Origin: Escherichia coli
GTDB lineage: Bacteria; Pseudomonadota; Gammaproteobacteria; Enterobacterales; Enterobacteriaceae
Direction: 5' to 3' (one strand)
NCBI RefSeq assembly: GCF_003334305.1
Contig: NZ_QOWS01000018.1
Length of the DNA stretch: 64,000 nucleotides
Numbering within the stretch: the first letter of the stretch is position 1; the number at the start of each line of letters is the position of its first letter. Position numbers and translations under genes: made by a program. The notes under the pieces were generated by a model, which saw nothing but the letters and a program-made list of their open reading frames with translations, made no database searches and had not been told where the DNA came from. Below, one piece after another: positions 62,554 to 63,913 of this stretch.

Positions 62554-63913
62554 ATGGAAAAAGACTATTTGAGAATTAGTAGTACTGTATTAGTGAGCTT
62601 ATTGTTTGGGCTTGCTTTGGTTTTGGTGAATAGTTGGTTTAATCAGCCAGGCGTTGAGGAAGTTGTTCCACGATCAACCTATCTGATGGTAATGATTGCT
62701 TTATTTTTTATCGATACTGTTGCATTTATTTTTATGCAGTTGTATTTCATTTATGACCGTAGGCAATTTTCAAACTGTATACTTAGTTTGGCTTTTCTGA
62801 GTTGTTTGATTTACTTTGTTAAAACCGTCATTATCATTCAGCAAATTATTGAGGGGCGTTTGACAAGCAGTGTTGTCCAAAATGACATTGCAATCTATTA
62901 TTTGTTTCGTCAGATGAGTTTGTGCATATTAATATTTCTGGCATTGGTGAATAAAGTTAGTGAAAACACAAAACAGCGCAATTTATTTTCCAAAAAAATG
63001 ACTTTGTGCATAAGTTTGTTTTTTGTTTTTGGGGGGGGCGATAGTTGCTCACATACTTTCTAGTCATTATGAGAGCTACAATTTACACATTGCCGAGTTA
63101 ACCAATGAAAATGGTCAGGTGGTTTGGAAAGCCTCATATGTTACCATAATGATTTTCATGTGGTTAACCTTGCTTTCGGTTAATCTATACTTTAATGGTT
63201 TACGCTATGATATCTGGAATGGAGTGACGGTGATTGCTTTTTGTGCCGTACTGTACAATATCTCTCTGTTATTTATGAGTAGGTATAGCGTGTCCACTTG
63301 GTATATTAGTCGCACTATTGAAGTAGTCAGTAAGTTAACTGTTATGGTAATATTTATGTGCCATATATTCAGTGCGCTACGAGTAACAAAGAACATTGCA
63401 CATCGCGATCCCTTAACCAATATATTTAACAGAAATTATTTTTTTAATGAACTGACAGTTCAATCAGCATCAGCCAAAAAAACGCCTTATTGCGTCATGA
63501 TTATGGATATCGACCACTTCAAAAAAGTCAACGACACCTGGGGGCATCCGGTTGGCGATCAGGTGATAAAAACAGTGGTGAATATCATTGGGAAAAGCAT
63601 ACGACCAGATGACCTTTTAGCGCGCGTCGGCGGCGAAGAGTTTGGCGTCTTGCTGACGGACATCGATACTGAACGTGCGAAAGCTTTAGCGGAAAGGATT
63701 CGGGAAAATGTTGAGCGTTTAACTGGCGATAATCCTGAATACGCTATACCACAAAAAGTGACGATTAGTATTGGCGCTGTTGTGACTCAGGAAAATGCGT
63801 TAAACCCAAATGAGATCTATCGACTGGCTGATAACGCACTTTACGAGGCGAAAGAGACCGGGCGTAATAAGGTGGTTGTGAGGGATGTGGTGAATTTTTG
63901 TGAGTCACCATAA
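62554..63913 (+). pseudogene. dgcT: dgcT/ycdT diguanylate cyclase with a frameshift in a G8 homopolymer
   Basis: Overlapping ORFs in frames 1 and 2 joined at gggggggg (about 63031-63038); span is one nt longer than 452 codons plus stop; C-terminal GGEEF domain in the second frame. Confidence 0.7.

Follow-up and report, generated by a model that had tools for sequence, protein, structure and literature searches.

At the end of the 64,000-nt stretch of Escherichia coli DNA analysed here (the window) lies a frameshifted copy of dgcT (ycdT), a gene for a MASE4-GGDEF diguanylate cyclase, which occupies 1360 nt on the (+) strand at 62554–63913. It is divergent from pgaABCD, with an intergenic region between pgaA and dgcT at 61968–62553 (no strand) that shows 0 differences from strain 41. 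Directly downstream of dgcT, on the (−) strand, is the start of an IS3 copy (63924–64000) that continues past the window and sits at the site of IS3D in K-12, so that the gene order, with dgcT divergent from pgaABCD and followed by IS3, is that of MG1655. Beyond IS3, downstream of dgcT, there is a fragment annotated as ‘ACP S-malonyltransferase’ (ymdE in K-12), again as in K-12. O157 and O55 strains carry an EAL-domain gene in place of the IS3/ymdE fragment, and, from window position 63925, O157 sequences no longer match. The window was matched to E. coli strain A7 (orangutan faeces, USA; NZ_CP028767.1): its last 1.6 kb align at 100% identity and its first 50 kb are identical to positions 1826907–1876906 of that record, the 100% identity holding for the parts compared.

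Apart from a single homopolymer tract, the gene differs from that of K-12 by only 6 substitutions in 1359 nt, and it is the orthologue of DgcT/YcdT (b1025), a MASE4-GGDEF protein, with a broken frame. The open reading frame begins with the ATG at 62554 and, after 169 codons, reaches a TAG at 63061–63063; this truncated frame (62554–63063, (+) strand) contains the N-terminal part of MASE4 only. The break lies in a run of eight G at 63031–63038 on the (+) strand, reading GGGGGGGG, which takes in codons G160 and G161 and the start of codon 162. No other homopolymer of at least 8 bases, and no other G/C run of at least 7, is present in the whole 64-kb window. The frame shifts at codon 162, a stop follows at codon 170, and an uninterrupted 452-codon frame is absent. 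The C-terminus of the 169-aa product is ...FVFGGGDSCSHTF (GGGDSCSHTF), and the remaining DgcT sequence (GGAIVAHIL...CESP*) is carried in the +1 frame up to 63913. The sequence-only reading had located the frame change within the G8 run and had judged the gene to be one nucleotide too long, and both points were confirmed by comparison with K-12 MG1655 and strain 2013C-3181, in which dgcT spans 1359 nt.

With the frame repaired, DgcT has a MASE4 domain at residues 41–274 (E = 1.8e-68) and a GGDEF domain at residues 282–439 (E = 1e-50). Truncation leaves the product with roughly half of MASE4, the membrane domain, and without the GGDEF catalytic domain, and the G8 gene as written should make no diguanylate cyclase. 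In NZ_CP028767.1 the RefSeq/PGAP labels already read ‘frameshifted’ for dgcT and ‘internal stop’ for pgaA. The frameshift thus restates existing public annotation; it is an ordinary pseudogene call, and possibly an artefact. Homopolymer frameshift pseudogenes are commonplace, and one in an accessory cyclase gene is routine and of little import in itself. The additions made here are modest, namely a two-step origin via a P162A substitution, an approximately 15-fold frameshift excess and the order of events in A7.

The split gene might still be partly functional if a GGDEF protein were still made, either by occasional +1 slippage of ribosomes on the G run or by translation starting internally. 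The out-of-frame remainder (63029–63913, (+) strand) stays open for 294 codons from a TTG, and these encode the rest of MASE4 (about 110 residues) and the entire GGDEF domain. In Shigella, cyclase genes with premature stops are said to raise c-di-GMP still, and an in-frame Met lies near the stop (PMC11327459). However, when the sequence was read by eye, neither the TTG at 63029 nor the in-frame ATGs farther downstream were seen to be preceded by a Shine-Dalgarno-like sequence. Expression of ycdT has been described as very weak (PMC4287979), and a partial DgcT product would miss half its membrane domain. Residual cyclase activity by either route would appear extremely unlikely.

The state of the tract in the species was determined with exact 86–88-nt queries, consisting of the tract and 40-nt flanks on each side, against 5,426 complete E. 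coli genomes; matches counted at ≥99% identity are exact, since one mismatch or gap falls below 99%. The common E. coli allele reads TTTTT-GGGGGG-CCG-ATA (Gly160-Gly161-Pro162), and this in-frame G6-CCG form was found in 2171 genomes. Frameshifted derivatives of it were seen in few genomes (G7-CCG, +1, in 3; G5-CCG, −1, in 2–3), a rate of about 0.3%. A second in-frame allele, GGGGGGG-CG, was found in 371 genomes, and here a Pro162Ala substitution (P162A, CCG>GCG) has lengthened the run to seven. Its frameshifted derivatives are G8-CG (+1), in 7 genomes, and G6-CG (−1), in 8. Counted as genomes, not as independent events, and with any assembly errors included, tract frameshifts amount to 15 of 386 G7-type genomes (7 +1 and 8 −1) versus about 6 of 2177 G6-type genomes (odds ratio 14.6, p = 8e-9). 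The dgcT tract is a genuine natural indel hotspot, made so by P162A. The earlier inspection had correctly supposed that a seven-G tract restores the frame, as is seen in the 371 complete genomes with in-frame G7 and on A7’s own haplotype; it had missed that the common allele is G6-CCG, and that A7 carries a C>G substitution as well. P162A itself (C>G, window position 63038) occurs on A7-like, K-12-like and O157 haplotypes, through either homoplasy at the edge of the homopolymer or recombinational spread.

The G8 genomes are A7, O157:H7 Show KS 470-1, 21B8, M15, SY033 and two NCTC86 assemblies, and the allele lies on at least 3 different haplotypes. In the assembly collection, 57 blocks also contain the exact 169-aa +1 product, all of them contigs shorter than 200 kb. 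The matches listed are Logan short-read assemblies with an O157-type context and a MASE4 hit only, and in other G8 contigs gene callers split dgcT likewise. The −1 alleles are not confined to O55:H7, whose genomes have G6-CG, but occur also in O157:H7, where the in-frame G7 predominates, and in other strains. The same exact 86-mer of the −1 allele is present in the O55:H7 strains CB9615, DEC5D and TB182A, and in the two records opened, those of CB9615 and DEC5D, dgcT is annotated as frameshifted. Because this allele is common to independently assembled genomes, it is clearly inherited and real. O55:H7 dgcT resembles that of A7 in its tract, in its parent G7 allele and in being annotated as frameshifted. 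It differs in that the O55:H7 lesion is a deletion, inherited, with the pga operon intact in DEC5D, whereas the A7 lesion is an insertion and private. In CB9615 alone, pgaB is annotated as frameshifted as well.

A coding-region tract that sets the frame and shows recurrent length polymorphism in unrelated strains recalls the poly-G and poly-C contingency loci of Neisseria, Haemophilus and Campylobacter, in which coding homopolymer length likewise sets the frame and is polymorphic among strains. If dgcT were such a locus, the G tract would be a reversible on/off switch, and mixed G7/G8 populations would vary the c-di-GMP input to biofilm formation. The occurrence of both +1 and −1 alleles on several backgrounds is consistent with a switch, as are the difference between G7 and G8 among NCTC86 stocks or assemblies and that between the G6-CG of O55:H7 genomes and the in-frame G7 of most O157:H7 genomes. 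However, the classical loci usually have longer tracts with high, measurable within-culture switching and are kept by selection, whereas for dgcT a short G6 run is both ancestral and commonest. It is not the long tract that is conserved (G6-CCG in 2171 genomes versus G7-CG in 371, with identical flanks), and the G6-CCG that most E. coli carry is rarely frameshifted. In a 7–8-nt run of mismatch-repair-proficient E. coli, slippage is expected to be far rarer than in classical phase-variable tracts. The difference among NCTC86 assemblies is confounded by their high background of 10 differences per 50 kb, and in A7 the pathway partner of dgcT, pgaA, is irreversibly broken. No report of dgcT phase variation was found in the literature searched. 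Phase variation in the usual sense at a slippery tract, one of the explanations offered from sequence inspection, is not supported here, and we consider it very improbable.

The neighbouring pga operon carries a lesion of its own. The PGA export porin gene pgaA (59544–61967, (−) strand) is a pseudogene of normal length, 2424 nt, with a nonsense mutation, W665*. The premature TAG lies at 59973–59975 on the (−) strand, where TGG has become TAG (C>T at 59974 on the (+) strand), and the last 143 of 807 residues are removed. The claim that the neighbouring pgaA is inactivated was borne out by this in-frame TGG>TAG change at codon 665. By inference, the truncation would disrupt the C-terminal barrel and abolish PGA export. 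The stop may also be polar on pgaB, pgaC and pgaD (55784–59535, (−) strand), which lie downstream of it in the same operon, are annotated as intact and have the same protein accessions as in relatives. The stop is real because an 87-mer spanning W665* occurs in 11 complete genomes and the 664-aa PgaA product in 204 blocks of the assembly collection. With a genuine W665*, A7 is predicted to be incapable of PGA export, whichever state dgcT is in.

W665* is not confined to the A7 background. In 4 of the 11 complete genomes the stop sits on a K-12-like haplotype, about a dozen differences from A7, together with an intact G6-CCG dgcT. Because W665* is thus found on two haplotypes, one K-12-like and one A7-like, it has either recurred or been moved by recombination, and its use as a single-lineage marker was rejected. 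A metagenome scaffold, ERZ28629121, also carries pgaA W665* on a K-12-like haplotype, together with a different dgcT frameshift, in which one A is deleted at the equivalent of window position 63227 and the gene is split into 225 + 227 codons.

Relatives of A7 bear on the order in which its two lesions arose. Compared with K-12 and the closest complete haplotypes, the A7 tract has two changes, an added G and the C>G at 63038. Strain 2014C-4135 has the G7 allele on an A7-like haplotype and, across 5.2 kb, one private SNP is all that separates it from A7 besides the extra G and the pgaA stop. A draft contig, JAGMHE010000007.1 (GCA_022976695.1), has W665* on the A7 haplotype together with a G7 dgcT, this G7 being its sole difference from A7 in 8,528 nt (window 55473–64000). 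On this haplotype, the extra G is found in A7 alone. Since JAGMHE010000007.1 combines W665* with an intact G7 tract, the pgaA lesion is the older of the two. We infer from these alleles that P162A and W665* probably came first and the extra G last. Convergent loss of function had been suggested; a simultaneous loss of both genes does not fit this order, given that a near-identical relative has the same, older pgaA stop next to an intact dgcT. We also considered a one-step origin of G8 from G6-CCG, and rejected it, as the two alleles are two changes apart and the intermediate, G7-CG, exists on A7’s haplotype.

The same private status of the extra G raises the question of whether it is real. Under a consensus or assembly error, A7 would truly have an in-frame G7, the eighth G would be a miscall, dgcT would be intact and only pgaA would be broken. 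That JAGMHE010000007.1, identical over 8.5 kb, has G7 is consistent with such an error. About 320 kb of A7, the window included, were sampled for non-IS frameshift pseudogenes; of the four present, three result from single-G indels, and the fourth, hicA, has a multi-base deletion. About 4 non-IS frameshifts per ~320 kb is not an abnormal rate, and it is the private, single-G nature of the changes alone that is suggestive. The G6>G5 change in a P2-like portal gene of A7 is unique among 1,425 complete genomes with the same stretch, and the GG>GGG change in aidB is unique among 5,381. Both may be consensus errors. Many real indels would call for a mutator, and none is obvious in A7, whose mutL is intact. 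Assemblies of a single strain can also disagree at this tract, as the three of NCTC86 do (G8, G8 and G7), and two of these (LT601384 and CP019778) also disagree on T5/T6 and G4/G5 runs. Literature searches for the A7 record, and for the orangutan and echidna isolates of its strain set, turned up no account of the sequencing platform.

Other observations argue against an error. Since many short-read assemblies contain G8 alleles, a long-read artefact cannot be the whole explanation of the variant. Across 44 kb aligned between A7 and strain 41 there are 8 substitutions and no indel besides the dgcT G. The call also falls in the gene that adjoins a genuinely dead pgaA, to which a functional link has been suggested, and other G8 strains carry real pga lesions (pgaB in M15, pgaD in NCTC86). 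In favour of a real change, too, scaffold ERZ28629121 combines W665* with a dgcT frameshift of its own. Sequencing error, which had been listed as one option among several, is thus a serious possibility, with the private G and the NCTC86 disagreement in its favour and the short-read G8 alleles against it, and we place it at somewhat less than an even chance. Since one strain can be assembled with different tract lengths, comparative studies should confirm from the reads any ‘dgcT pseudogene’ called at this tract. In exact look-ups, the 169-aa product gave, among the matches listed, only O157-type short-read contigs, and residues 1–664 of PgaA returned JAGMHE010000007.1 and not A7. The two other single-G indels of A7 in NZ_CP028767.1 are at about 499,455–499,542 (aidB) and 3,025,395–3,025,482 (portal gene).

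The NCTC86 assemblies differ in more than the tract. LR217818 and LT601384 have G8 in dgcT and an intact pgaA; CP019778 has G7, together with L542* and one further substitution in pgaA. The pgaD frameshift of this strain is present in both LT601384 and CP019778. Across pgaA-dgcT there are 3 differences in 4.4 kb, against a background of 10 differing sites between LT601384 and CP019778 in the adjacent 50 kb, including frameshifting homopolymer indels in efeB and yccE. Clustering of differences in pgaA-dgcT was accordingly dropped as a sign of selection, the background being high and including homopolymer indels.

Taken together, we favour the reading that A7 dgcT is a recent pseudogene, formed by real slippage of the G7 run under relaxed selection, and assign it a probability of roughly 0.5. 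The loss would then be ordinary gene decay at a mutational hotspot and not a regulatory switch, with a probability near that of a consensus error. Under this model, the common G6-CCG allele would first have acquired the C>G substitution (P162A) to give the in-frame G7-CG, and slipped-strand addition of one G would then have produced G8. The G8 run would shift the frame at codon 162 and end translation at codon 170, within MASE4, so that GGDEF is not made. By that time the PGA export porin gene pgaA would already have been lost via W665* in A7’s lineage, and the cyclase, whose suggested role concerns PGA, would under relaxed selection have broken at its most mutable site.

How closely DgcT is tied to PGA bears on the last of these steps. 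DgcT had been described in the sequence-only reading as making the c-di-GMP that activates PGA synthesis, which is overstated: such a role is demonstrated for another cyclase, YdeH/DgcZ, which is credited with PgaD stability and PgaCD activation (PMC8461298), whereas a role of YcdT/DgcT in PGA production has been only ‘suggested’, on the grounds of its divergent orientation relative to pgaABCD (PMC4287979). Deletion of ycdT in CFT073 gave less biofilm in one medium (PMC3484386). Among the G8 strains besides A7, the PGA operon is broken in M15 and in NCTC86. In the stretch fetched from M15 (NZ_CP185789.1), pgaB is annotated as frameshifted and truncated, with its C-terminus missing. The state of M15 pgaB suggests a deletion in the pga operon.

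These co-occurrences allow a broader reading, in which the G7 run created by P162A is an evolutionary on/off point and frameshifts gather preferentially in strains whose PGA system is already broken (A7, M15 and NCTC86). If true, this preference would be population-genomic evidence that DgcT is dedicated to pga. The link between dgcT decay and pga lesions draws on a handful of strains, and as a genomic association is underpowered; we regard the broader reading as unlikely. The approximately 15-fold frameshift excess on the G7 (P162A) allele, together with the co-occurrence with pga lesions, is a small lead towards asking whether DgcT belongs to the PGA module.

Frameshifted ycdT has been described before. 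In EAEC 55989, ycdT is likewise a frameshift pseudogene, with a 7-bp frameshifting insertion, and increased pga expression is the proposed effect of an IS1 upstream of pgaABCD (Richter et al. 2014, PMC4287979). The A7 lesion, in contrast to the 7-bp insertion and upstream IS1 of 55989, is a 1-nt homopolymer change beside a dead pgaA. More widely, dgcT is deleted in S. flexneri 2457T (PMC11327459), and Salmonella is described as being without pgaABCD (PMC5464674). In Shigella and Salmonella, as in A7, biofilm genes of the c-di-GMP and PGA systems have decayed or been lost in particular lineages. Their losses, however, are lineage-wide and have been proposed to be adaptive, whereas A7 has a private point lesion of uncertain reality together with an uncommon nonsense allele.

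Elsewhere in the window, an 11.9-kb island at 25476–37416 lies between the 3' end of wrbA and ymdF. It encodes two recombinases, phage baseplate and tape-measure proteins, a transposase, an HNH endonuclease and a DNA adenine methyltransferase. The island is absent from strain 41 and from NCTC86, and its flanks overlap by 7 bp in the alignment.
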